From assembly GCF_035594765.1 (NCBI RefSeq), contig NC_085846.1:12759190-12823189 (forward strand): a stretch of DNA of 64,000 nt. The letters are read 5' to 3'. Each line of letters opens with the position of its first letter. The stretch's first letter is position 1. This DNA is from Anolis carolinensis. Lineage: Eukaryota. Made by a program: the position numbers and the translations under genes. The notes beneath the pieces are model-generated. The model did no database searches and had not been told where the DNA came from. It worked only from the letters and a program-made list of their open reading frames with translations. Shown here piece after piece: positions 1 to 56,920 of this stretch.

Positions 1-600
1 CGGGAAGGCAGCACAGCGCGAGAGCGAGCGAGAAAGAGAGAGGGAGCTGCAGGGAGAGGGAGGCCTCAGGCCCGGCCCGTCCGCCATCTTACCTGGGTGG
101 GAGGGGGGAGGAGGGAGGAGGGAGGGGAGGCGCCTCCTGCCCCGCCTCCTCCTGCCGCCGCCTCAGCCCCAGCGCCGCCGCCGCCTCGGCCGCAGAGAAT
201 CCGCCGCCATCCGTGGCCCCAAAGCCGCCCCCGCCCGGCCTCTCTCTCCTCGCGGGTCCCGACGGTGCTGCCCGAAACGCCGCCGGCTCCTCCCGCTCGG
301 CAGCCGCTCCTTCACCGGGCCTCGCAGAGCCAGACCCGACCCGCCGCGGCAAAATGGCGGCCGCCACCACCAAGCGCCAGGGCCAGCCCCCTCCTTCCCT
401 CCCTCCTCCCACCGCTCCCCCCGCCCGCCGCGGCCCAGCAAGCCTCGCGAGAGCCCCGGCAGCGCGAGAGTGGGACTGAGGGGGAAAAAAAACACATCCT
501 CGACGGAAGATGGCGCCGCTCGCCTGAGGTCACGCTGAGAGGCTTAGGCGGAAAGAAGGGCAGGATGGCGCGACTATTCGAAAGTACTGTACATTGATTA
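1..600 (-). promoter_or_regulatory. SRCAP: CpG-island promoter and non-coding first exon of the next minus-strand gene, probably SRCAP
   Basis: GC/CpG-rich. Minus-strand donor CAG|GTAAGA with the exon ending at 93. Several YY1-type AAGATGGCG motifs. No coding sequence is visible, so identity rests only on the conserved order PRR14-FBRS-SRCAP. Confidence 0.6.
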
Positions 601-916: not shown

Positions 917-1063
917 TATATGTTAATGAATGCGGAAACATTCTCTAACCTTGTCAATCAAGTTTCTGCACCCCTACAAACCACTTCAAAAATAACAAAG
1001 GTGGAAGAAATGGGTTGCTGCGAGTTTTCCTGGCTGTATGGCCATGTTCCAGAAGCATTCTCT

Positions 1064-1104
1064 CCTGACGTTTCGCCCGCATCTATGACAGGCATCCTCA
1101 GAGG
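1064..1104 (-). ncRNA. Minimal type I hammerhead ribozyme motif, Penelope-associated
   Basis: Minus strand reads CCU-CUGAGGA-U-GCCUGU(CAUAGAU)GCGGGC-GAAA-C-GUC-AGG. It has core boxes CUGANGA and GAAA, stem I CCU/AGG, stem II, a palindromic ACGU stem III and a GUC cleavage triplet. Confidence 0.7.
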
Positions 1105-1118
1105 TTGTGAGGTCTGTT

Positions 1119-1775
1119 TATTTATCGTGTCAGAAGCGAACCGAGGGTACAAGCTATAATGTATTTGAAAGCACAAAGTTAAAGAAAACTTGGCATTATA
1201 CTAAATGTCCTTTGACGAGTAGCTGGCCGCTTGAAGTGGCTCTGATGTCGCTGTAAGAAGGTCCTCCATTGTAAGAAGGTACTCCAGGGCTCAGACTGCA
1301 CTGTAGTAATGGCTCGTGGTTTGCTCTTCATCACACTCGCATGTCGTGGACTCCACTTTGTGGCCCCATTTCTTAAGGCTGGCTCTGCATCCCATGGTGC
1401 CAGAGTGCAGCCTGTTCAGCGCCTTCCAAATTGTCCAGTCTTCTGTGTGCCCAGCCACTGATTGAGATTTTGGGTTTAGCCTGCCACTTTTGGACTCTCA
1501 CTTACTGAGGTGTTCCTGAGAGAATCTCTGTAGATCTTAGAAAACTATTTCTTGATTTAAGGTGTTGGCATGCTGGCAGATACCCAAATGGGATGGGTCA
1601 GAGATGTCACTGCCTTGGTCCTTTCAATGCTAGCTGCCACTTCCCAGCCGATGTCAAGTGGTGCAACAGTATAATTTCTCCAGTGTTGTGGGGCGTAGAC
1701 ATCCTGTGATAATGTGGCATGTCTCATTAAGAGCCACATCCACTATTTTAACGTGGCGAGATGTATTCCACAGAT
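1119..1775 (-). mobile_element. Vingi-type LINE 3' fragment, degenerate
   Basis: Resembles the Vingi copy at 40789-41527, including the 3' tail TGACACGA+A-rich. Flanked by a TSD-like repeat tgaggtctgtt at 1108-1118 and 1790-1800. Confidence 0.65.
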
Positions 1776-2252
1776 CTGTTGAAAACTGTTGAGGTCTGTT
1801 GAAAACTAGGTAAGGGGTTTATATATCTGTCGAAAGTCGAGGGTGAGAGAAAGAACTTTTGTCTGCTTGAGACAACTGTTAATGTAGCAATTGGCCACCT
1901 TGATTAACATTTAATGGCCTTAATCATATAAGCATTTAATGGCCAGCTTGATTAACATTGATTAACAGTTTCAAGGACTGGCTGCTTACTGCCTGGGGGA
2001 ATCCTTTATTTATTTATATATTTACTACTTATAAAGGACAGTACTCAGAAAACAGGACAATTCCAGACAAGAAACAATTAGGGCCAGTTAACACCTCCCA
2101 ACAAAGCATTCCTCAGGCAGGAAGCAACCAGGCTTGGAAACTGCAAGGCTTTTCAATGCTAATCAAGCTGGCCAATTGCCACATTCACATTTCCTCAGGC
2201 AGACAAGAGTTCTTTCTCCCACTCTGAACATTCCACAGATGTTTATTCCAGA

Positions 2253-2436
2253 GCAGTGGTTCCCAACCTTTTTTTGACCAGGGCCTACTTTGACCAGGGA
2301 CCACTTTCCAATATTAGTACCAAAAGGGTTTGGTCAACTTTAGATTTGCTTTGGTTCAGAAAGGAGATGAAATAAAATAAATAAAATAAAGAGGAATGAG
2401 ATTCGCGGACTGTATTTTCATTCTCGTAGCCCACTG
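2253..2436. mobile_element. hAT-type MITE inserted in the Penelope repeat
   Basis: Starts CAGTGGTTCCCAACC and ends ...CCACTG; it splits the Penelope sequence. Confidence 0.5.
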
Positions 2437-2813
2437 CCTGCCATAGATGTGGACAAAACGTCAGGAGAGAATGCTTCTGGAACATGGCCATACAGCCCGG
2501 AAAACTCACAGCAACCCAGTGATTCCGGCCATGAAAGCCTTCGCCAACACTTCAAAAATAATAAAGATGGAAGGAGTGCTATATATTGCGTTTGTAAAGC
2601 GAAAAGTGATTTATTTCACTCAATTTACAACCTTAAATGTGTGGAATCAAATGCCAAGGTACACTTTTAAAAAAAACTATGTGGGAACTTCAAAGCACCA
2701 ACAAAAGTTTTTACATCTCAAATTTCCCCCAAACTGTCATGGAGATTCAAAAGCATGAATGTGATCTTCATGTCAGAAATTCCACCTATATCTGGAAGTG
2801 TTTTTTTATTCTG

Positions 2814-5966: not shown

Positions 5967-7639
5967 TAGTTGGCTTCTTATTGTTTATATGCAGCTTTAC
6001 TACACACATGTATTCAGGTCAGTCTCTTACAACATTTAGAAAAGAGCAGCAGTTAAATCCAAGGGTTGCATAACCCAAATGATATATTCTTACAACAGGA
6101 CAGGTTGGCTCCTTACTTGCTTTGTCAATAGCAGCTATATATCTATGCAAATCTGATGTTTGCACAACAATAACAAGTTGTATTGCTGACCTTGCATATG
6201 TTCATGTCATAAAACTGTTGAATCATATTATTATACTAAGGCTTATAATTAATTTTGAACAAGGAACTACAGTATATCAAAACTGGCTCCTTGGCAGATT
6301 ATGAATATGCTGCTATGGTCTTATTAAATTACGTTAACAATTTAAGGAAGGTTAAGTGGAAAACATTGGACTTATGTATTGTTCTTCCCTGTCTGATGTC
6401 CTTCAGCTACATTTTACTTTAGTCCCCATTGTCCACATTTCTGCTTTTCTTCCACTATCAGCACATTTCACTGGCATCACAAGCACAAGTTTTACCTTAT
6501 TGTGTTTTGACATTTTCAATTTCTTTTTTTGTCATTTGTTTTTAGTGAACCCGTCACACCGTTTTCTTGGCAAGATTTGTTCTGAGAGGGTTTGCCACTG
6601 CTTTTCTCTGGGGCTGAGAAAGTGTTACTTGCCCAGCAACACCCAGTGGGTTTATGTAGCGAAGTTGGGATTCAAACTCTGTTCTCCTAATGTCAACATT
6701 CAAATCACCACATCTTTCTCTCTTTTTCGGGGGGGGGGGGGGTTACAAACAGTTCAAACAAACCCTCAGAGCATGATTTTTTTCATATAATGTTATATAG
6801 TAAGATTTTATGGACACCAGAAGAAAAAACCTATCAATATTTCATAGGAAAAATCTTTCTCTGAAAGAATCCAAATATATAGAATGCTTAAGACTGTATT
6901 AAGACAAGGCTAATAGAGAAAGCTGTTATCAAGGATATCTAAAAGCATTCCACCATGCAGTTGGCTGAATCATTAGAATAGGAACTCTCAGTATTTTTTG
7001 TTTTAATTGGTTGGAAATTAACACTAAGGCTATGGATGTTCAACACAAATTACCGAATGCAATGTTATTTTGGTATCAGGCACCACTGAAATAAGGGGAT
7101 AACTACAATTCTATATCCACTTGCTTTACAGCAAATCCACCCCTTGGAAAGTTCATTTTTAGACTAGAATTTCATTGTTAACTGGCAGGATTCTGGGATC
7201 TACCGTGCACTAAAGTAACTTCTAATTTGTCAGCGAACCTCATTGAATAAATTAATTTTTAAGAAGCTATGTGTGGAATTAGAATCTTTGGCTTTGCATT
7301 GTACAGATTATAAGATTCAAATATATTTGATGTGTATGTTTAGTATATAGAAAGCCTCTAGAAATGTATTGCTTTGATAGGTAAGGAAATTCCCTCCAGA
7401 GGTATTATCGTATTAGTTTGTTATAACAGTGTTGCGGCACTTTAAAAGATGAGCATTTATTATGTTATTATTATTATTAACTATGTTATAATAAAGGTAA
7501 GCTGCAACTATTTTGTTCTTGTGTGCTTTCAAGTCATTTCCACGTAAATCTATCATGGGATTTTCTTGTCAGGTTTTAGTAAATGTGCCTGAAACTGAGC
7601 ATTTGTATCTTTGTTGTGGTGTGCCTTCAATCATTTTCT

Positions 7640-7800
7640 ATAACAAGGTTTTCTTGGCAAAATTTGTTGAGAAGAGATTTACCATTGCTTTCCTCTGAGA
7701 TTGAGAAAGTGTGGCTTGCCCAAGGTCACTTCGTGAGTTTCCATGGCTGAGTAGGGACCTCAATCTGTGTATCCAGAGTCATAGTTCAACACTGAAACCA
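7640..7800 (-). mobile_element. CORE/MIR-like SINE with RTE-type tail (relatives near 4855-4970, 6550-6700, 34060-34180)
   Basis: CORE-like ctgagagagtgtgacttgcccaaggtcac joined to an RTE-like ttcttggcaa...tttgccattgc tail. Confidence 0.55.
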
Positions 7801-8412
7801 CTGTACAATAATAAATGCAGTCTATATTTCTTACATAGATTGCACACCAATATTACTGGTAGGCTTTGGGCAATCATCAATCCATTGTATGAATTTTCAA
7901 TGTTAAATCAATTATCTGCTGTAGTCGTGGAAAATTCCAAGTTTTCTTGCTGCAGAATATGAGTTATTGTAATTACTCAAAAATACTATGAGAAAACTAA
8001 TTATCTAATCAAACAATTTTTCCTTCTCTTCTGGGACTTTACTATCATACAAGAAACACGAATGACTGCAGATTCTGTATAGCATTTAACATTTCTTTTA
8101 TGACAAATAGTATGAGAGAGCTTCACTTGAACATATTCTTTCTAGTAATCCTGGACCACTCTAAAATGTGTGTGCGCCATTTATTTGGAGTTCAAATTTT
8201 GCCAATTTCTATTCTTATTTTAAAATAATTTTAAAAATGAATTGCATTTTTAAAGCTGGGAATTAAGTTTCCAACCATTCTATGGAAAACTTCAAATATT
8301 CATCATCTGACTATCTTGTGTGTGAAACCCATCCTTCCCTAACCTGACATCAAGTCGTCCAAAGACATACGCAGACACACAGAACAAGGAATCCAGAAGC
8401 ACCAGTTTGGGG

Positions 8413-8418
8413 TTTAAT
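8413..8418 (-). terminator. Candidate FBRS polyadenylation signal (ATTAAA)
   Basis: ATTAAA about 810 nt after the stop codon, followed on the minus strand by GT/T-rich sequence. Confidence 0.45.
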
Positions 8419-9225
8419 TAACCAACCTGGGGAAGAAAAGGGCACCAGGCAAGTGCGTTGCACCCTCCTTGTTGCACCTTTCCAATCAATTACAGGAGGA
8501 AAGGGAGCCAGAGGTGGGAAGGAGCAGATACAGGTATAGAAAAGAGCAGTACAGTAAAAACAAGGGGAACCGTGGAGAAAGGGAAAGGGCAGGAGAGGAG
8601 AGAGAAGTCACTTTTAAAATCACAATCTCAAACCTTTTATAAATGTACAAAAACCTTTTCCCCCCACCTGCCTGGGGCAGAATATATAAATATTTACACT
8701 GCCTTGTGGGGGGAGGCACCTCAAGATGCAGCCCTCCCTCTCCCCTGAAAGCAGCCTTCCCGTTTGTCCATAGAGGGAGAAGAGCACCCCCCAGACTCAG
8801 AATTTCAGTCCAGTAGGATATGAAATCCCCTGACAGAACACCCAAATCCACAGAGGCAGAAAGAGGGGGCTTTTGCAGAAATCAGGAACAAAGACTGAGG
8901 GTGCTTGAGATGTGGATTCCTGCTCCTGTTACCAGCAACAGCCCAAAGAGACCGCATCATCCTAAGCCTCAACCTGAGGCCAGAAAGAAGTACCCATTAG
9001 TCACAACTGTTGGGGGCTAAAGTCTTTCTGGGGTGGTAGTGGCAGCAGTGTCATGCCTCTACCTCAGCCTAAGGTGACAGGCAGCTATGTTTCTATTCCC
9101 ACTAATGTGAAGGGGAGCCTAGATATCTGACCGGGATTCACACTGACCCTGTCCGTAAGTCTGCCAGAATTAAAGGAAGCTGCTGAAAACAGGCACTCAT
9201 GTGCCAGGACCCCACTGCAGCCCCA

Positions 9226-12200
9226 TTATCTGGAGTCCCGGTCCTTGTATGCAGCTGCCAGTTCTCGGATGTCAGGGGCACGGCGAGGGGAACAGGGGCG
9301 AGCGTTAGAAGCCGGGATCAGAGGTGGGGGGGCACTCAGCAGAGCTGCAGCTGCGGCCGAGGGGGCAGCTTTGGCCAGAAGCCCATTTTGGTGGCGGGGA
9401 TAGGCCATGAGGCCAGGATGGGGGGGTGGCGCCAGGCCATATAGCCGGCCATAGTCCTCAGCAGCTGCAGCAGCAGGCGACGGCGCCTCCAGGTAAAGGG
9501 GCTGGCGCTGTAACGAGTGCAACTCCAGCCGCCGATGGTAGGGCTCACGCCAAGCTTCAAGTGCAGCATAGGAGGCAGCTGAAGGTGGGGCAGCCACCAG
9601 GTACGGTGAGACACTTCCACCAGTCCCGGCCTGGGGCCGCTCAAACACAGCCAGTGTTCCCAAGGGGTGGGAGACATGCAGGGTGCTGTGGTAGGGTGCC
9701 CCCGTGCGCAGTGCCCCCTCAAACCCGGTCAACTCTGGCTCTTCCTTGACCTTCACTTCCTTCTTCAGAGGCAACTCTGGATAAGGGGAGCGGGAGGCAT
9801 GCCCTGAACTTGCTGGGCTTCCATAGCGATGGTCACGTTCCACTGGTACGTGGGGCCGACCTGGAGGCTCCTCATGGGCCAGTGCTGAGTTCTTTGGGGT
9901 GGGTGTAGCAGGAGAAGCACGCAGGGGATGGCGGGAAAAGAGGACATCTCTGAAACAAACACACAATATATTCATAGAGCCAGTTCTTCAGAAATTAATC
10001 ACAATCATCTGTGTCTATTACGCTCAAACCAATTCTCTGCTGCCCTACTGTTGAGATTGGTCAATTCTTCTAGTCAAATCCTTGTTTCCGACCATGCTGT
10101 AACTTCTCAATTTCTTCTTCATCTTCCCTTAATTACCCTCTGAACCACCACCCCCATTTTGTTTGATCTCCAATATATCCAATGCATCTCTTTCCTTCTT
10201 CTTCTTACATCTAATCCCTTCATGCTCCAACCTAGTACTGAACTGACAGATTTAAGCCAGGGCTTGGAAAAATTACTTTTTTGGGACTACCTAGCCAGTG
10301 GCTATGCTTGTTGGAAATTTTGGTAGTTCATTTTTCCAAGCTCTGATAAAAACATGGACATTTTAATATCTTCAAGGATGGGTGAACTTTCTTCCACTCC
10401 AAAATCCTCAACCATCACCTCGATATCCTATCTGTCACTTGTGCCTCACCTGTCCTTTTCATCCTTGATCACTGGCCCATCAGGCTTTTCACCCTCCTTG
10501 TCATGCTGGGGGCCTCCGCGCTCGGTGCCATCTCCAGTGCCACTTTTGGGCCAAGCTGGGGCAGTGGGGAAGGAAGGGGGTGTACGGTGGAGGCGGTTCC
10601 AGGTGTCATGTGGATTAGGGAAGGGTGGTGCTCCAGGGCTGTCCTTTTGCCCAAAGACAGCGCTTGAATCTGAAAGGTAGAGCATAAAATTCAGATCCAG
10701 CACAGCACAAGCACTCCCTGCCAAACCCTTAGGCCTAACTGTGGTGTAAAACATCTGCAAGTCTGGGAGATACAGAAGCAACTACATTCTCACCAAGGAA
10801 TAAGGACCCTGGTGAATGTTACATCATTTGGAAAAGTTACATGGTAGAGTTTTCTCAACCTGTAGTATTTAAGGTATTAGCAATTCTGCTGAATGGCCAG
10901 GGTGAGTGGGAAGGGTAGGCTAGATCTCTCACAACAATAATGTATCACTGGCTGTGCTGGTATGGGTTGATGGAGACTACAATCCAGCTACACAGCACCC
11001 ACCCCTTGCTCTTTGACAAAGAAATGACAGTGGGAAATAGATGGGCTCCAGGATTTTTGAGTTTTATCCCCTTCTGGAAAGGTAGTGAAAGGAAGAAAGG
11101 AAGGAGGAAAACCCAATAATCCCAAATTTCTTTCTCCAGCACTTTATTAAAGGGCCTAGAAACCGGATCTCCCCAGGTTGCTCTTTCAGCTCTAGCATCT
11201 TAACTGCCCTAAGGATGATTTGGATCTGAATTGCCTGAACCAGTATGATCAATGGTCAAGGAGCCTGAGATTTGTAGGCAAAAACGCAATCACTACTGCC
11301 ACCGTTTAGAGCTTTTTCCACCTCTTTCCCCAAAAATACTCACTAAAGGATGGGCTTCCCAAGCCTCCAAAAGCACCATTGGAGAGTGCTCCCAGGGATG
11401 CAAAGCTGGGGGGCCTGCTGAATGGATCTGGAATAAAACAAGGAAGCATAGGAGTGATTCAACAGTGCCTTGCTCCTGTTCCATTTGCCCCATACTTCTA
11501 GTGCTCCAGCTCTTACCAATATGTGGGCCAGGGCTGAGGAAAGAGCCATGAGGAGTGCCGGGAGGACCAAATGATGCCCCACTGCCAGGATGGACAACAC
11601 CTGGAAGACAGACAGACAGATAGCAGGAATAAGGAGAGTTCATTGGCAAGGAATCTGCTTAGATCAAGGAGAAGAATGCAATTTCCTGCTTCTTGGCAGG
11701 GGGTTGGACTGGATGGCCCATGAGGTATTTTCCAACTCTAATGACTCTAAGAGGGAGTATCCCATTGCCAAGGGACACTGGGCCACCAAAGCAAAACTAC
11801 TTAAGGGATAAAAAAAGTCATCAATACAGCTCACAACCTGGTCTGGTATTTTAATTGGTTTCACTCTGAGTTTGAAAAGGTTTTTTAGACATTTAAACTT
11901 CAACTTAATCCTATGGAGGGGGGAATTAAGAGTTGTAGACTAAATCTTTTCCAAGCTCTGCCACTACACAATAAAAAGGAAGCAAACCAACACAAAAGCC
12001 CTAGAAAGTCTACTAATATCTTTTTTGAATAGGACACAAGAGTCTCGGGATGTAAAATGAAATGTTTTATTTCAGAAATAAGACCAATGTGTTTTGACCG
12101 AAAAAAACATATGGCCTACCAAGAAATATATATATGGCTTTCTGCAGAATCTGTTGGAAAACGTGTCAGTACGCATACATGAATAATTTTATGCATGGCA

Positions 12201-30520: not shown

Positions 30521-30539
30521 CCACTTCCTTTTACTTATG

Positions 30540-30883
30540 AAGTAGAGTCTCACTTATCCAACATAAACGGGCCGGTAGAATGTTGGATAAGTAAACATGT
30601 TGGATAATAAGGAAGGGTTAAGGAAATGCCTATTAAACATCAAATTACATTATGATTTTACAAATTAAGCACCAAAACGTCATGTTTGACAACAAATTTG
30701 ACAGAAAAGCAGTACAATACACAGCAATGTTATGTGGAAATTACTGTATTTACGAATTTAGCACCAAAACGTCACAATGTATTGAAATGATTGACTACAA
30801 AAACATTGACTAATAAAAGGCAGGCTGCGTTGGATAATCCAGAATGCTGGATAAGCGAATGTTGAATAAGTGAGACTTTACTG
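30540..30883. mobile_element. Tc1/mariner MITE, family A
   Basis: Same TIR and body as 615-916. Confidence 0.85.
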
Positions 30884-31018
30884 TACTAGAATTATAGCCT
30901 GTTAGCCCTGCAGGCAATTAGGGGTTAACTAGCCTAGCTGACCACAAAATGGCACATGTAACTGTCTTTTAGGAAAGGGCAGGATTAATAAGCAGAAATA
31001 GGGGTTAATAAGAATGCA

Positions 31019-33059: not shown

Positions 33060-42589
<9,530 letters not shown>

Positions 42590-47480: not shown

Positions 47481-48119
47481 TAAATATGATGGAAGAAGGC
47501 TGACAATGCAGTTTGATTCTTTATTTTAGGCCCCTTCTACACTTCCATATAAAATATAGATTATTTGCTTTGGACTGGATTATATGGCAGTGTAGACTCA
47601 TATAATCCAATTCAAAGCAGATAATATGGATTATCTGCTTTGATAACCTGGATTATATAGCAGCAGACAAAGATTCAAGTAGACTTCGCTAAAATGACAT
47701 GGTACATTTCTTGTCAGGTTAAACTTTTAAACATTTAAGCTTATATGGTAGACCCCTCTCACTGACATACTGATTCCTTGCACTTTAGCTTCTCCCCTAT
47801 CTTTCCTAATCCAAATTAACTCAAGAAACTTTCTCACACTTGTCAATGCACTTTATTAAAGATCCTGAAACAAACAATGCACTTTTTGACCTGATGGCCC
47901 CCATTTTATCTATTGATGGTGATGTTTGTTTTATTATCTTCCCTACTTGGTTTTTTTGTATTCTGTATTTTGTGCTTTTAACTTGTTTACTGTATTGGAA
48001 TATTATGTTTGATATTGGTTTTATTTGTCGTTTTGTTTCTGTTTGGGCTTGGCCCCATGTTAGCCTCCCCAAGTTCCTTCAGGGAGACGGTGGCGGGATA
48101 GAAAAATAAATTATTATTA

Positions 48120-48442
48120 CAGTAGAGTCTCACTTATCCAACACTCGCTTATCCAACGTTCTGGATTATCCAACGCATTTTTGTAGTCAATGTTCTCAAA
48201 ACATCATGATATTTTGGTGCTAAATTCATAAATACAGTAATTACTACATAGCATTACTGTGTATTGAACTACTTTTTCTGTCAAATTTGTTGTATAACAT
48301 GATGTTTTGGTGCTTAATTTGTAAAATCATAACCTAATTTGATATTTAATAGGCTTTTCCTTAATCTCTCCTTATTATCCAACATATTCGCTAATCCAAC
48401 GTTCTGCTGGCCCGTTTACGTTGGATAAGCGAGACTCTACTG
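48120..48442. mobile_element. Tc1/mariner MITE, family A, reverse orientation
   Basis: TIRs and TA target duplication, inserted in a (TTA)n tail. Confidence 0.85.
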
Positions 48443-48769
48443 TATTATTATTATTATATCTTTAACTTATAGTCTTTAACAGTCTCTTCAAAACTATTTC
48501 ATAACAGCTCTCTTTCATAACAGTCTACTTCCAAGGGACTCAAGCGCCCTCAACGGTCTTCTAACTCCTAACACTGACTTCCAGTTTCATGATGTAATTG
48601 TCTTTCTTTTTTATTTGTGTCAGAAGCGGCTTGCAGTAATTGTCTGCTGCACACCATGTATGTTTTAGGAAGCATCTACACTGTAGAATTAATGCGGTTT
48701 AGCATCACTTTAACTGCTACACAGCTCTGCAAGTGCAGCATTTTCCCTATGAAGCAGAGTGTGCAGCAT

Positions 48770-50291: not shown

Positions 50292-50314
50292 CCTTGCTTA
50301 GCTTTTCCAATATA

Positions 50315-50636
50315 CAGTAGAATCTCACTTATCCAACATAAACGGGCCGGCAGAACGTTGGATAAGTGAATATGTTGGATAATAAGGAGGGATTAAGGAA
50401 ATGCCTATTAAACATCAAATTAGGTTATGATTTTACAAATTATGCATCAAAACATCATGTTATACAACACATTTGACAGAAAAAGTAGTTCAATACTCAG
50501 TAATGCTATGTAGCAATTACTGTATTTACGAAGTTAGCACCAAAATATCACGATGTATTGAAAACATTACTACAAAAATGCGTTGGATAGTCCAGAACGT
50601 TTGATAAGCGAGTGTTGGATAAGTGAGACTCTACTA
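50315..50636. mobile_element. Tc1/mariner MITE, family A
   Basis: TIR and body match 615-916. Confidence 0.85.
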
Positions 50637-51061
50637 TACCTCACAACCTCTGAGGATGCCTGCCATAGATGTGGGAGAAACATCAGGAGAGAATGCTTCT
50701 GGAACATGACTGTACAGCCCAGAAAATTCACAACAACCCCTGAACAAGTTGTGCATGGCTGAAAACTTACCGCTAATTCACAGTGGAAAACGTCTTGATG
50801 GTAAAGGAAATAGGAAGAAAACAGAAAAACTTTTGCCAATTGTGGAAACTATTGTCCTTTGTGGGCGACAAAAACTGGCTTGAAGAGGGAGCAATGATTC
50901 AGGATCTATTACCTGTGAGGAACCTTTCCAAAATGATGGTCATTTCGGGGCCTTGTTGAGATCTCGTGCCAAATCAGGAGACACTAGCCTGAAGAGTCAA
51001 GCTACATACCTGACCAACACTATCACTATGGCATCCTGGGAGCTGTAGATTGCATCTACAC

Positions 51062-52284: not shown

Positions 52285-52330
<46 letters not shown>

Positions 52331-52645
52331 GTAGAGTCTCACTTATCCAAGCTAAACGGGCCGGCAGAACCTTGGATAAGCGAATATCTTGGATAACAAG
52401 GAAGGATTAAGGAAAAGCCTATTACCCATCAAATTAGGTTATGATTTTACAAATTAAGCACCAAAACTTCATGTTTAACAACAAATTTGACAGAAAAAGT
52501 AGTTCAATATGCAGTAATTACTGTATTTACGAATTTAGCACCGAAATATCATGATGTATTGAAAACATTGACTACAAAAATGCGTTGGATAATCCAAAAC
52601 GTTGGATAAGCGAGTGTTGGATAAGTGAGACTCTACTGTAGTACA

Positions 52646-52690
<45 letters not shown>

Positions 52691-55600
52691 AGTAGAGTCT
52701 CACTTATCCAAGACTCACTTATCCAAGGTTCTGGATTATCCAAGGCTTTTTTGTAGTCGATGTTTTCAATATATCGTGATATTTTGGTGCTAAATTTGTA
52801 AATACGGTAATTACAACATAACATTACTGCATATTGAACTACTTTTTCTGTCAAATTTGTTGTATAACATGATGTTTTGGTGCTTAATTTGTAAAATCAT
52901 AACCTAATTTGATGTATACAACAAATTTGACAGAAAAAGTAGTCCTCCTTATTAGTAGAATCCCTCCTTATTATCCAAGATAATAATTTATCCAAGGTTC
53001 TGCTGGCCTGTTTAGATTGGATAAGTGAGACTCTACTGTAATTGTAAATTATAGGTTGCTGTGAGTTTTCCGGGCAGTATAGCCATGTTCCAGAAACCTT
53101 ATATTAAATATACAATAATAAAACAGTATATCATTATGTTATCAGTAGTAATTATATTTAAAATATTATAATATTATTATAGATTATTATGTTATACGTA
53201 TTAGTATTAGTATTATATTGTATTACATTATAATAATATTACCAATATTATATGTATATACAATGTGTTGTTGACGGCTTTCATGGCCGGAATCACTGGG
53301 TTGCTGTGAGTTTTCCGGACTGTATGGCCATGTTACAGAAGCATTTGCTCCTGAAGGCAATTTAATGCTAATCAAGCTGGCTAATTGCAACATTCACACT
53401 TGCCTCAAACAAACAAGAGTTCTTTCTCCCACCCTGGACCTTATTCCACAGATATATAAACCCCACTTGCCTGGTTTCCAGCAGATCTCACAGCTTCTGA
53501 GGATGCCTGCCCATAGTTTTAGGCAAAACGTCAGGAGAGAATGCTTCTGGAACATGGGCAGACAGCCCGGAAAACTCGCAGCAACCTAGTGATTCCAGCC
53601 ATGAAAGCCTTCAACAACATATGGTATATACATATAATATTGACAATAATATTAGAATGTAATACAATAAAATACTAATAATACAATATAATAATATGGA
53701 ATAATTATAATGTAATATAGTAATACTATTATATTAAATATAATTACTACTGATAATATATAATGATATACTGTTTTATTATTGTATATTTGTATCTTTT
53801 AAGTTGTAATGTTTTTAATTTTGAGCCACTTTGATTCTCTGCATGGAGAGATAAAGTGGGATATAAATAAATAAACTCTCGGGAACCCAGCCATCAACCT
53901 ATTTATTTATTTATGACATTTGTGCCCTGCCTTTCCCCAATCAAGGGCCCAAGGCAGCTTACAGCCAATAAAAACATACAATATAAAAGTGAAGAACAAG
54001 TTAAAATCATAAATATTAGAAAATGTTGTAAAACCCTTATTAAAACCCTAACAATACTGAGATAAATGGATTATGGCCTGTTAGGATCACAACCCATTAG
54101 GGAGATTAGATTATGACCAATTAGGATCACAGCCTAATGGGGAACAGAGTTTCAGGAGTGTTCCTTCAGTTTCTTTTGTAATGGATAGATTCTTTTGTAA
54201 TGGGTGGTAGATATTTTGTTTCTATTTGATGCTTTCAGCAGACAAAGATTCAAGCAGACTTCTTTTTAAAGTAACATATTTGTTTAGTCATAGCTTCATG
54301 TATTTAAAGATACAGGCCCATTTGTCAGGTTAAACTTTAACAATGCTTCAGTTTGTATCTTTAACTTACAATCTTTAAAGGTCTCTTCAAAACTATATTG
54401 CTTTGTACAGCTCTCTTTAATAACAGTCTACTTTAAAAGGAACACAAGCCTCAACAGTTTTCTAACTTCTAACACTGGCTTGTGCACTCTAACAGACTCA
54501 GGCCTCAACTGACTTCTAACTGTCATCCTTTTAAAACTGAACATTCTAAACTGGCACTGAACCAATCACATGGTCTGCTTTAAGCATATAGAGATAAGGA
54601 GACTGCAAACCAAAATAAGACATACATGTCAGGAAATAAGCCGATACAGTACAAAACAGACAAACATCAAATAGAGGGGGCTTGAGAATGTTGCTGTTTC
54701 CAACAAATGAGATAAATAAAACCACCCTGATAACACCTAACAAAGTCAAATGGCCTTCTTAATCATAGGATATCATTGTCATTCCTTCTACAGCCCCGCC
54801 CAAAAGGCTCTTCCTGAAAGCCAACAGAGAGGGTGCAGATCTCATCTCCTGTGGGAGGGCATTCCAAAAAGAGGGCACCACTCCCGAGAAGTCTTTAGTC
54901 TAGCAGTCTTTAGATGAAGAGTGTCCTGAATACTTGACACCAACAATTTCTCACTAGGAACCTAATCTCATTGGATGTTATAGAATAACAGGAAGTGCAT
55001 CTACTTTGAAGAAATAACAACAATAATAATCAGAATCAATGTATCTGTAACAGTCTTCTTGCTATAGGTACCTTTGCTGCACGCTTGGAGTGACTTCGGG
55101 TTCATCTACACTGAAGAATTGATGCAGTTCGACACCACTTTATTTGCCACAGTTCAGTGCTGTAGAATCATTGCAATTGTAGTTTTACAAGTTCTTCAGG
55201 TGCATCTACACTGAAGAATTGGTACAGTTTGACATAACTTAAACTTCCATGGTTCAATCATGGGAGTTGTAGTTTAACACATTCTTTAGCTCTTTTGCCA
55301 AAAAGTGCTGGTACCTGGCCAAACTACAATCCTAAAATTTCATAGCATTAAGTAGTAGCAGTCAAAGTACTGTTGAATTACATTAATTCTACAGTATAGA
55401 TGCACCCTTTAACCGCTGTGTCTCATTGCTGTGGATTTATGGGATTTGTAGTTTGATGAGGCATCAGCACTCTTTGGCAGAGAAGACTAAAAACCTTGTT
55501 AAACTACAGCTCCCATGATCCCAAACCATTGAGCCATGGAAGTTAAAGTGATATCAGAGTGCATTAATTCTACAGTGTATGTGCACCTGAATTCAGCCCA

Positions 55601-56920
55601 GTGTGCAGCAAGGGATCCTATAGCAAGAAGACAGATTCCATATGGGGTGTGTGCCCCTTTTCTAAGACACCTTCTGTGTTTGCGGGAATGAGGATGGGGT
55701 TTCTTCTCAGCTACCCAAATAGCTTGGTTTGCTGACCAAAAACCTGTTTACTGTTGTTTCTAACAGATGGGACAAAAACTGCCTGGATTCTGTCTCTATC
55801 AGAAGAAAATAAGAGCAAAGGGGAAAATCCAGAAGGTGGTTCAGAACTGCGTAAGACATCCTCATGCAGCCCCCAAGAGGGTGGCCTTGAGGGAACCCAA
55901 CAGGGAGACTCCGTAAAAGAGCAAGTGGCCTTTTGTAAAGGGAACTCTAAGGATCCCCAAAGGAGCATCAAACCCAAATCCTACAAATGCTCCGACTGTG
56001 GGAAAGTTTACCGAAGGAACACCGATCTCGGGAGGCATCAACGGACTCACACCGGAGAAAGGCCTTACCCGTGCCTGGATTGTGGGAAGAGCTTCAGTCG
56101 GAGTTCGATCCTCATTGAACATCAGAGGATCCATACCGGTGAAAAGCCATACATTTGCAGCCATTGCGGGCAAGGGTTCAGCCAGAGCTCCAACCGTAAA
56201 CAACATGAGAAGATACATGGGAAGGATAAAATGGGCAATCCAACACATTGGGTACAAGGAACACAGACAAGCCAGCATGAGAAGATCCAGGTCCAGGAGA
56301 AGGTGGACAAGCCAACACACTGGGAACAGAAAACACGGACAAGCTGGCAAGAGAAGATGAAGGGCAAGGAGAAGCTGGGCAAGCCAACCCAGTGGGGGCA
56401 AAGTCAGCAGAGGACAGAGGACAAGAACCTTGGCCCTAAAAGCAAGATGAGAACAGAGGAGGGATTGGGGCATAAAGTAGGTTCTGGAAAGGTTTCTCCA
56501 TCTCCTAAGAAAAGCCCTTTGTGGAGCTCAAAGGTGGTCCTGAAGCACCAGAGAAGCTTCCTCCTTGAAAAACCCTACAGGTGCCCTCAGTGCGGAAAGT
56601 GCTTTGCCCGTAGCACGGATTTCATCCGGCACCATATCACCCACACAGGAGAGAAGCCCTACACTTGTATAGAATGCGGCAAGAGTTTTACCCGCAGCTC
56701 CGTCCTCAACGAACACCAGAGGATCCACACAGGAGAGAGGCCCTACAAGTGTCGGGTCTGTGGGAAGGGCTTCAGCCAGAACTCCAACCGGAAGCAACAC
56801 GAAGCAATCCACCAAGTGAAGAAATCAGCTGAGCCTTTCCTAAATGGACAAGAAAATTTGAACTGGGGTGCAGGACTGGTGCAGCAACAGAGAGCCAATC
56901 CAAAGAGGGGAAAGACCTGA
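51428..56920 (+). CDS. C2H2 zinc-finger protein, 6 fingers (3+3), no KRAB or SCAN detected, about 420 aa
   Basis: Exon 1 at 51428-51536 (GCCATGG start, donor GAG|GTGAGC, phase 1) splices in frame to 55767-56920 (ttgtttctaacag|AT). Six CxxC...HxxxH fingers with TGE(K/R)PY linkers. The exon 1 linkage is inferred; the finger exon is certain. Confidence 0.85.
51810..52275 (+). mobile_element. Helentron/DINE-like non-autonomous element
   Basis: 5' actagctgtgcccgg followed by hairpin gccac-gcgttgct-gtggc, an AT-rich interior, and 3' ttttatatatatagat. Confidence 0.65.
52330..52638. mobile_element. Tc1/mariner MITE, family A
   Basis: TIRs; lies within (TAA)n. Confidence 0.85.
52690..53038. mobile_element. 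Tc1/mariner MITE, family A, inverted relative to 52330-52638
   Basis: TIRs, TA target duplication, reverse body. Confidence 0.85.
53263..53620. mobile_element. Penelope-like inverted terminal repeats
   Basis: Minus piece 53263-53354 abuts plus piece 53355-53620; degenerate hammerhead at 53494-53535. Confidence 0.7.
54079..54742. mobile_element. Possible solo LTR (partial second copy at 47662-47740 plus 48458-48580)
   Basis: TGTTAGG...CCTAACA ends, a CCAAT box, and internal sequence repeated elsewhere in the window. No matching TSD seen. Confidence 0.35.
55099..55587. mobile_element. Cluster of GGTGCATCTACAC-type MITEs (abundant family; also about 26440, 29845, 41755, 43848, 45087, 46380, 62875, 63773)
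   Basis: TIR ggtgcatctacactg..gaattaatgcag / ctgcattaattctacagtgtagatgcacc. Confidence 0.65.

Follow-up and report, generated by a model that had tools for sequence, protein, structure and literature searches.

Minimal type I hammerhead ribozymes are known from the pLTRs of metazoan Penelope-like elements (PLEs; Cervera and de la Pena, 2014, PMC4209133). As described in the portions of that study available to us, they have a bulge at 9/10.1, G10.1-C11.1, a palindromic 15.2-16.2 without loop 3 and an enlarged helix II, and they are mostly dispersed single copies from truncated elements. In the Schistosoma families helix I spans 4-5 bp and helix II 7-8 bp; among vertebrates the same portions name turtle and snakes, not the anole. 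Single minimal hammerheads are given there as inactive (PMC4209133) and dimers as weak (PMC4209133, PMC6765202).

For Anolis carolinensis, Frangieh et al. (2024; PMC11167929) describe the PAc (Poseidon_Ac) element and its hammerhead. According to the excerpts of that paper on which we draw throughout, the PAc ORF begins where stem II begins, and the RNA is cut 26 nt after the start codon. The ribozyme did not cleave in vitro without PAc protein; the protein, which is expressed, enables cleavage. In the same excerpts, the ribozyme is not required for insertion, and RNA-seq yielded no reads ending at the cut site. Insertion by the protein in vitro needed the first 172 nt of the ORF, a requirement that concerns insertion and not ribozyme cleavage. 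The main reverse-transcription start is given as 111-118, and in vitro the start site was the same on either DNA strand. Inverted pLTR insertions, with a one-sided tail of 30-40 bp and a target duplication, have been described as well (PMC3846280, PMC8557442, in the passages on one-sided tails). The PAc family, its ribozyme, the ribozyme's activity and the anatomy of its insertions are thus already published.

We analysed a 64,000-nt stretch of the A. carolinensis genome (the window), whose initial annotation had reported a core-intact hammerhead on the minus strand. Read from 1104 to 1064, the sequence contains a 3-bp stem I (CCU/AGG), CUGAGGA, one extra U after A9, a stem II of 6 bp (G-C, C-G, C-G, U-G, G-C, U-G) closed by a loop of 7 nt, then GAAA, the palindrome ACGU with no loop, and GUC, so that every core element, the 6-bp stem II, the extra U and the palindrome were found again; cleavage is predicted between 1067 and 1066. 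The PLE-type core (CUGANGA, GAAA and NUH in type I order) is accordingly present, as are G10.1-C11.1, the extra nucleotide after A9 and the palindromic 15.2-16.2 without loop 3, all shared with the published PLE hammerheads, as is the enlarged helix II; the helices, at 3 and 6 bp, are shorter than those of Schistosoma. A generic hammerhead descriptor, run over both strands of the 64 kb, matched twice, and only the match at 1064-1104 combines a 6-bp stem II with the ACGU palindrome. A 41-nt family motif allowing at most 3 mismatches matched two sites in the window, 1064-1104 and 50647-50687, each with 2 mismatches, whereas 100 shuffles produced no match. The minimal type I architecture that had been proposed is borne out.

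The check with hammerhead models that the initial annotation had suggested came out differently: Rfam gave no hammerhead match at E≤10, either across the whole window or with 950-1200 alone. Rfam models miss a loopless helix III, so the motif is not thereby absent. The lack of an Rfam match would nevertheless fit a chance match to a short descriptor, a reading that we consider wholly implausible; it is refuted by the shuffles and by the identity to a full-length PAc unit given below, and the same placement is found in the published, assayed PAc ribozyme. The sequence comparisons thus confirm the motif as a genuine minimal type I hammerhead. Its position and those of the surrounding features are collected in the table.

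Table. Features of the window (position 1 is its first nucleotide)
Feature	Coordinates	Strand	Evidence or remark
SRCAP-like gene: CpG-rich promoter, and likely first exon with donor after 93	1..575	-	
Flank duplication, left copy, 27 bp	985..1011	+	23/27 identical to 2551-2577
Short (tail-less) arm end: last pLTR bases and ORF codons 1-28, to ORF nt +84	1012..1118	-	alignment to the tandem PAc locus L166
Minimal type I hammerhead of PAc/Poseidon element	1064..1104	-	descriptor, family motif, unit alignment, published geometry
5'-truncated 3' piece of another LINE inside the pLTR, just upstream of the hammerhead	1119..1789	-	
Rest of minus-arm pLTR	1790..2010	-	multi-copy coverage to about 2010
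pLTR of inverted arm	2031..2240	+	copy comparison, L166 alignment
Short element with 6-bp inverted ends	2254..2436	.	occupies the site of the CUGAGGA loss in the plus arm
Long arm with tail: damaged hammerhead and ORF up to +117, the 33-nt tail (2518-2550) included	2435..2550	+	
Flank duplication, right copy	2551..2577	+	
FBRS-like last exon (stop 9226) and 3' UTR	7416..9987	-	
Other PAc short-arm copy, broken hammerhead	50638..50739	+	
Another pair of inverted PAc arms; hammerhead broken in the plus arm, its core missing from the minus arm	53265..53619	.	

The hammerhead can be assigned to a particular element. Its A9 doubles as the first base of the element's ORF start codon, and the ATG at 1095 and C17 at 1067 reproduce the published PAc spacing. 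Compared by eye with the RNA given in the methods of PMC11167929, it has 2 differences in 41 nt. Elsewhere in the genome, locus L166 (G000:C4:8822400-8832000) carries four PAc ribozymes that recur every 2664 bp, along with three complete open ORFs of 846 aa that start at A9 and contain a reverse-transcriptase domain (RVT_1, E 8e-14). To each of its four tandem units the ribozyme studied here is identical at 39/41 positions and its arm at 92/102 (1012-1113), and the 28 amino acids that the arm encodes match the N-terminus of the unit at 21/28. By sequence, then, 1064-1104 is shown to be the hammerhead of a truncated PAc/Poseidon copy, and the Penelope-like origin proposed earlier holds; the copy itself appears to be a dead truncated arm from a sister subfamily of PAc (92/102). 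It shares with the published PAc ribozyme the ribozyme itself, the start codon at A9, the cut spacing and ends at the tail boundaries. It differs in that only 84 ORF nt remain, a LINE piece cuts it off from its pLTR and it is not in tandem; the reverse-transcriptase domain and tandem units are features of the parent at L166 that are absent here.

Several observations concern the wider family. The L166 array offers a natural tandem context for dimer cleavage. Near its C-terminus the L166 ORF has a GVY...YIG motif, with no match to Pfam PF01541 at E≤0.01. A genome search with PF01541 for the full-length parent was set aside: of its 10 loci, nine had no PAc 5' piece, and the tenth had only an incidental PAc copy on the opposite strand. 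We also noted a second type of long, open PLE-like ORF at G000:C3:264454086-264457343; it has reverse-transcriptase and GIY-YIG motifs and an extra Cys-rich linker, and we infer it to be Neptune-like. For a 33-nt motif from PMC11167929 that extends beyond the tail, the genome contains 92 exact matches, and no common continuation past the tail was found among the 149 PAc copies compared.

The intact hammerhead lies in what is likely the tail-less arm of a two-armed inverted insertion spanning 1012-2550. The end points of this arm are common to many other copies. The LINE piece that interrupts it is flanked by two identical 11-bp sequences (1108-1118 and 1790-1800) that occur nowhere else in the window; the piece matches the LINE frame at 40781-41437 (tblastn, E 1e-27), is 75-80% identical to four other genomic copies, and we take it to be Vingi/Ingi-like. 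Beyond it, the segment 1790-1850 corresponds in alignment to about -76 to -13 of the full-length unit. The plus arm is identical to the minus arm at 77/83 positions and 90.5% identical to the full-length unit, and the element at 2254-2436, by its ends, appears MITE-like. The two arms end at +84 and +117, the 33-nt tail lying between these points. No match of at least 19/26 to the flank duplication occurs elsewhere in the window, and the duplication is likely a target-site duplication. It is 27 bp long with 4 mismatches, against 9-17 bp at other pairs, which makes a single event for the two arms likely but not proven; no empty site joining 1011 to 2551 was present among the joints listed. Like the published inverted pLTR insertions (PMC3846280, PMC8557442), the locus has head-to-head arms, a one-sided tail and a flanking duplication; it departs from those described in the passages available in its 27-bp duplication (about 8-17 bp there) and in the two later insertions that split the arms.

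These features suggest how the locus would have arisen. PAc protein would nick both DNA strands and copy its RNA from two internal starts, which, going by the excerpts of PMC11167929, we infer to lie at +84 and about +117. Such internal starts would put the hammerhead into almost every truncated copy. The LINE piece and the MITE-like element would have inserted after the two-armed PAc insertion.

In a survey that mixed blind and selected genomic stretches, we found 51 head-to-head PAc pairs, 35 of them long plus short, 4 short plus short, 1 long plus long and 11 with an unclassified end. The focal pair is among these 11 because its alignment extended 9 bases further; inspected by eye, it is short plus long. 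A flank duplication was present in 29/51 pairs (one of the 29 being a microsatellite) versus 0/153 mismatched controls. Across 172 PAc 3' ends, 85 were short, 62 long and 25 other. The predominance of long plus short arms, in 35/40 classifiable pairs, suggests that each DNA strand uses one of the published reverse-transcription starts in vivo (PMC11167929). We found no published count of such pairs in the passages on one-sided tails, and the rule may be useful to specialists.

The minus-strand gene upstream of the hammerhead encodes an Auts2 domain and the one downstream an HSA domain, the latter located on the minus strand 7.7 kb to the left of the window; we take the first to be FBRS by synteny and the second to be SRCAP by synteny and sequence. 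The hammerhead has the same orientation as FBRS and lies some 500 bp away from the CpG-rich promoter zone of the SRCAP-like gene, in agreement with the identities and orientation given in the initial annotation. That annotation had gone on to suggest, from the intact copy and its position, that the ribozyme could cleave FBRS read-through RNA. In its strongest form, the host would keep the copy as a fail-safe cutter that shields the SRCAP promoter, which we judge highly improbable. The position is as this would require, and the mechanism is feasible in principle for a good ribozyme: an efficient hammerhead after a poly(A) site is cleaved during transcription, and the RNA still attached to the polymerase then undergoes 5'-3' decay (PMC2288634, in the part seen by us). 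Against it, spliced FBRS contigs end at 8080, 7946 and 7416 (3/4 runs), 6.3-7 kb from the hammerhead, and the 3' UTR has three poly(A) hexamers (8418, 8185 and 7461). The orientation carries little meaning as well, since a two-armed insertion brings a sense-oriented copy every time, both orientations likely having been inserted together.

Some transcription may occur near the site. One RNA-like run gave locus-specific contigs at 6232-7517, 2514-2847 and 1956-2125, at a depth of about 8-13 (about 8-10 for the latter two) versus 103 for FBRS. These contigs are unstranded, have no defined ends and may be DNA, and other PAc copies pile on the hammerhead site itself; bins close by that lack coverage carry no weight either way.

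Being intact does not set this copy apart. A 35-nt intact pattern has 7517+7422 = 14,939 exact matches in the genome (control, 0), and the focal variant itself occurs twice. To follow decay, we used 95 blind 10-kb stretches (950 kb), with a rule for strict intactness built on the minimal-hammerhead features in the available portions of PMC4209133. They contained 84 PAc copies, of which 20 lacked the full span, 41 were broken, 12 were leniently intact and 11 strictly intact, that is, 11/64 of full-span copies. (An earlier 560-kb sample under a looser rule, contained in this one, gave 9/30.) Strictly intact copies are therefore expected at 0.74 per 64 kb (P(≥1)=0.52), so that about one intact copy in such a window is what the co-option reading has to be set against. 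Extrapolating from 11 in 950 kb, the genome would hold ~21,000 strictly intact hammerheads, an estimate that, together with decay mainly through two core CpGs, may interest specialists.

Conservation within the motif is also no higher than outside it. Across the family, non-CpG core changes numbered 30/768 (3.9%) versus 128/2969 (4.3%) outside the ribozyme (p=0.69; nine subfamily-variable columns excluded from the non-core counts), and the CpG at C11.1-G12 was changed in 40/128. Divergence outside the motif is lowest in the strictly intact copies (1.8% vs 4.7%). In the focal copy, 2/40 positions are changed within the ribozyme and 1/53 beyond it, a single-copy comparison of low power. Both changes within it leave stem II paired, a point against the neutral reading; about 0.4 of single changes are tolerated, and two tolerated changes have a chance of about 0.16. 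That the hammerhead is complete comes down to two substitutions that by chance preserved the pairing of stem II and to two core CpGs that have so far escaped mutation. Decay was measured on the family and not at the orthologous site, so a recent co-option would look the same.

The other copies in the window are damaged as had been described. The copy at 2435-2465 lacks CUGAGGA and additionally has G12->A; that at 50647-50687 has C11.1->A and GUC->AUC; and that at about 53494-53535 has G12->A plus loop changes. Further fragments at 53054-53095 and 53298-53354 (minus strand) lack the hammerhead 5' half and stem II. The earlier statement that 1064-1104 is the only intact copy stands insofar as it is the only descriptor match in the window with a 6-bp stem II. 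Its damaged neighbour at 2435 probably forms the second arm of one and the same insertion, and with one insertion for both arms the intact and the damaged copy are likely of the same age. Protection of the core CpGs by the nearby CpG island was considered and dropped, the evidence being mixed: the repeat at 613-918, which lies closer to that island, is poorer in CpG than 57/67 copies, the LINE piece is CpG-richer than 6/6 copies, and the CpG content of the focal arm is matched or exceeded by 29/196 copies.

Could the hammerhead cut? Without a loop 3 it needs a partner, as had been noted, and we agree on the architecture; no hammerhead-bearing copy on the same strand was found in 104 kb (the window plus 40 kb to its left). 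A cis dimer is therefore not available to the focal copy, which weakens co-option further, this ribozyme type being weak or inactive alone according to the portions of PMC4209133 cited above. The helix III self-duplex has a predicted energy of only -3.1 kcal/mol. Stem II is predicted to form: five of its pairs have probabilities of 0.97-1.0, and the U-G that closes the loop has one of about 0.5. In local folds, CUGAGG is paired elsewhere and stem I reaches a probability of at most 0.004, equally low in the full-length unit; the hammerhead-like fold lies 6.6-13 kcal/mol above the minimum here and 10.7-12.2 in the full-length unit, under a model that ignores core contacts and protein. Since the full-length unit shows the same penalty, it is a family trait, and since that unit can cleave with protein, the penalty is no proof of inactivity. 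A hairpin (1096-1112) predicted both here and in the full-length unit pairs CUGAGG with pLTR bases just upstream. In the folding model, this hairpin may keep the ribozyme off until protein binds. A scan for bacterial promoters and terminators, irrelevant to a lizard, only found the same hairpin again.

The parent ribozyme works with help from the element's protein, and probably from a neighbouring unit in tandem RNA. Having neither a same-strand partner nor the full RNA that the protein needed (84 of the 172 ORF nt), the focal copy would rarely fold or cut even when a polymerase passes through it. One could still imagine that, in PAc-expressing cells, PAc protein or RNA sometimes folds it in trans so that it cuts read-through RNA, with no benefit and no selection. 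The intact core is compatible with such incidental activity, as are the full-length tandem elements with open ORFs in the same genome, the expression of PAc and the in vitro effect of its protein (PMC11167929, as excerpted), and the low-depth contigs that approach the site. We regard it as unlikely, given the 84 remaining ORF nt, the weak helix III, the lack of RNA-seq reads ending at the cut site in those excerpts, and the tens of thousands of other copies that would compete for the protein. Nothing points to read-through cutting at this hammerhead, and the proposed role finds no support in motif conservation, in a cis partner or in the reported behaviour of the ribozyme without PAc protein.

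Some vertebrate ribozymes have been retained by their hosts. The intronic amniote hammerheads, the Clec2 3' UTR hammerhead and CPEB3 are low-copy, conserved at orthologous sites and active alone. The focal motif resembles them in being self-cleaving by type and in its place within or close to a host transcription unit; it differs in belonging to a high-copy type without helix III whose family decays neutrally. We found no natural hammerhead co-opted as a terminator in the titles and abstract openings of the matches listed, which is not proof of absence. That PAc trans-activates some twenty thousand intact hammerheads to cut host RNAs, with this copy kept as an FBRS/SRCAP terminator, would mean that a transposon ribozyme had been recruited for gene insulation and that an active element had a route to cut host RNA; we consider it very unlikely.

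Our data are instead consistent with a truncated PAc/Poseidon hammerhead, likely in the tail-less arm of a two-armed insertion, likely inert and neutrally decaying, a reading in which we have high confidence. Such a relic would be a retrotransposon hammerhead that has not yet decayed and no switch for neighbouring genes. As found, the locus matters little, since its family, ribozyme, activity and insertion anatomy are published.

Other features of the region deserve brief mention. At 53202-53683, both arms of the inverted PAc pair are long, in contrast to the usual long plus short arrangement, and the pair is nested within larger AT-rich inverted repeats. A frequent MITE-like repeat of ~310 bp with inverted ends occurs at 613-918, 30537-30885, 48112-48457, 50312-50638 and 52326-53040, one copy abutting the SRCAP-like CpG island. 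At 39775-39883 (minus strand), a 5' fragment of U2 snRNA that continues into an (AAT)n microsatellite (Rfam, 60 bits) is likely a retrocopy. Within what is presumably intron 1 of the SRCAP-like gene (G000:C6:12753805-12757746, or L031:4616-8557, minus strand) we noted an uninterrupted Glu-rich ORF of 1313 codons with internal repeats and no Pfam match at E≤0.1. It is on the SRCAP strand, upstream of an exon resembling the usual SRCAP N-terminus, and may represent either a nested gene or an alternative exon of unusual length. Finally, a 394-codon frame at 55736-56920 (plus strand) contains, by eye, two clusters of C2H2-type zinc-finger repeats.
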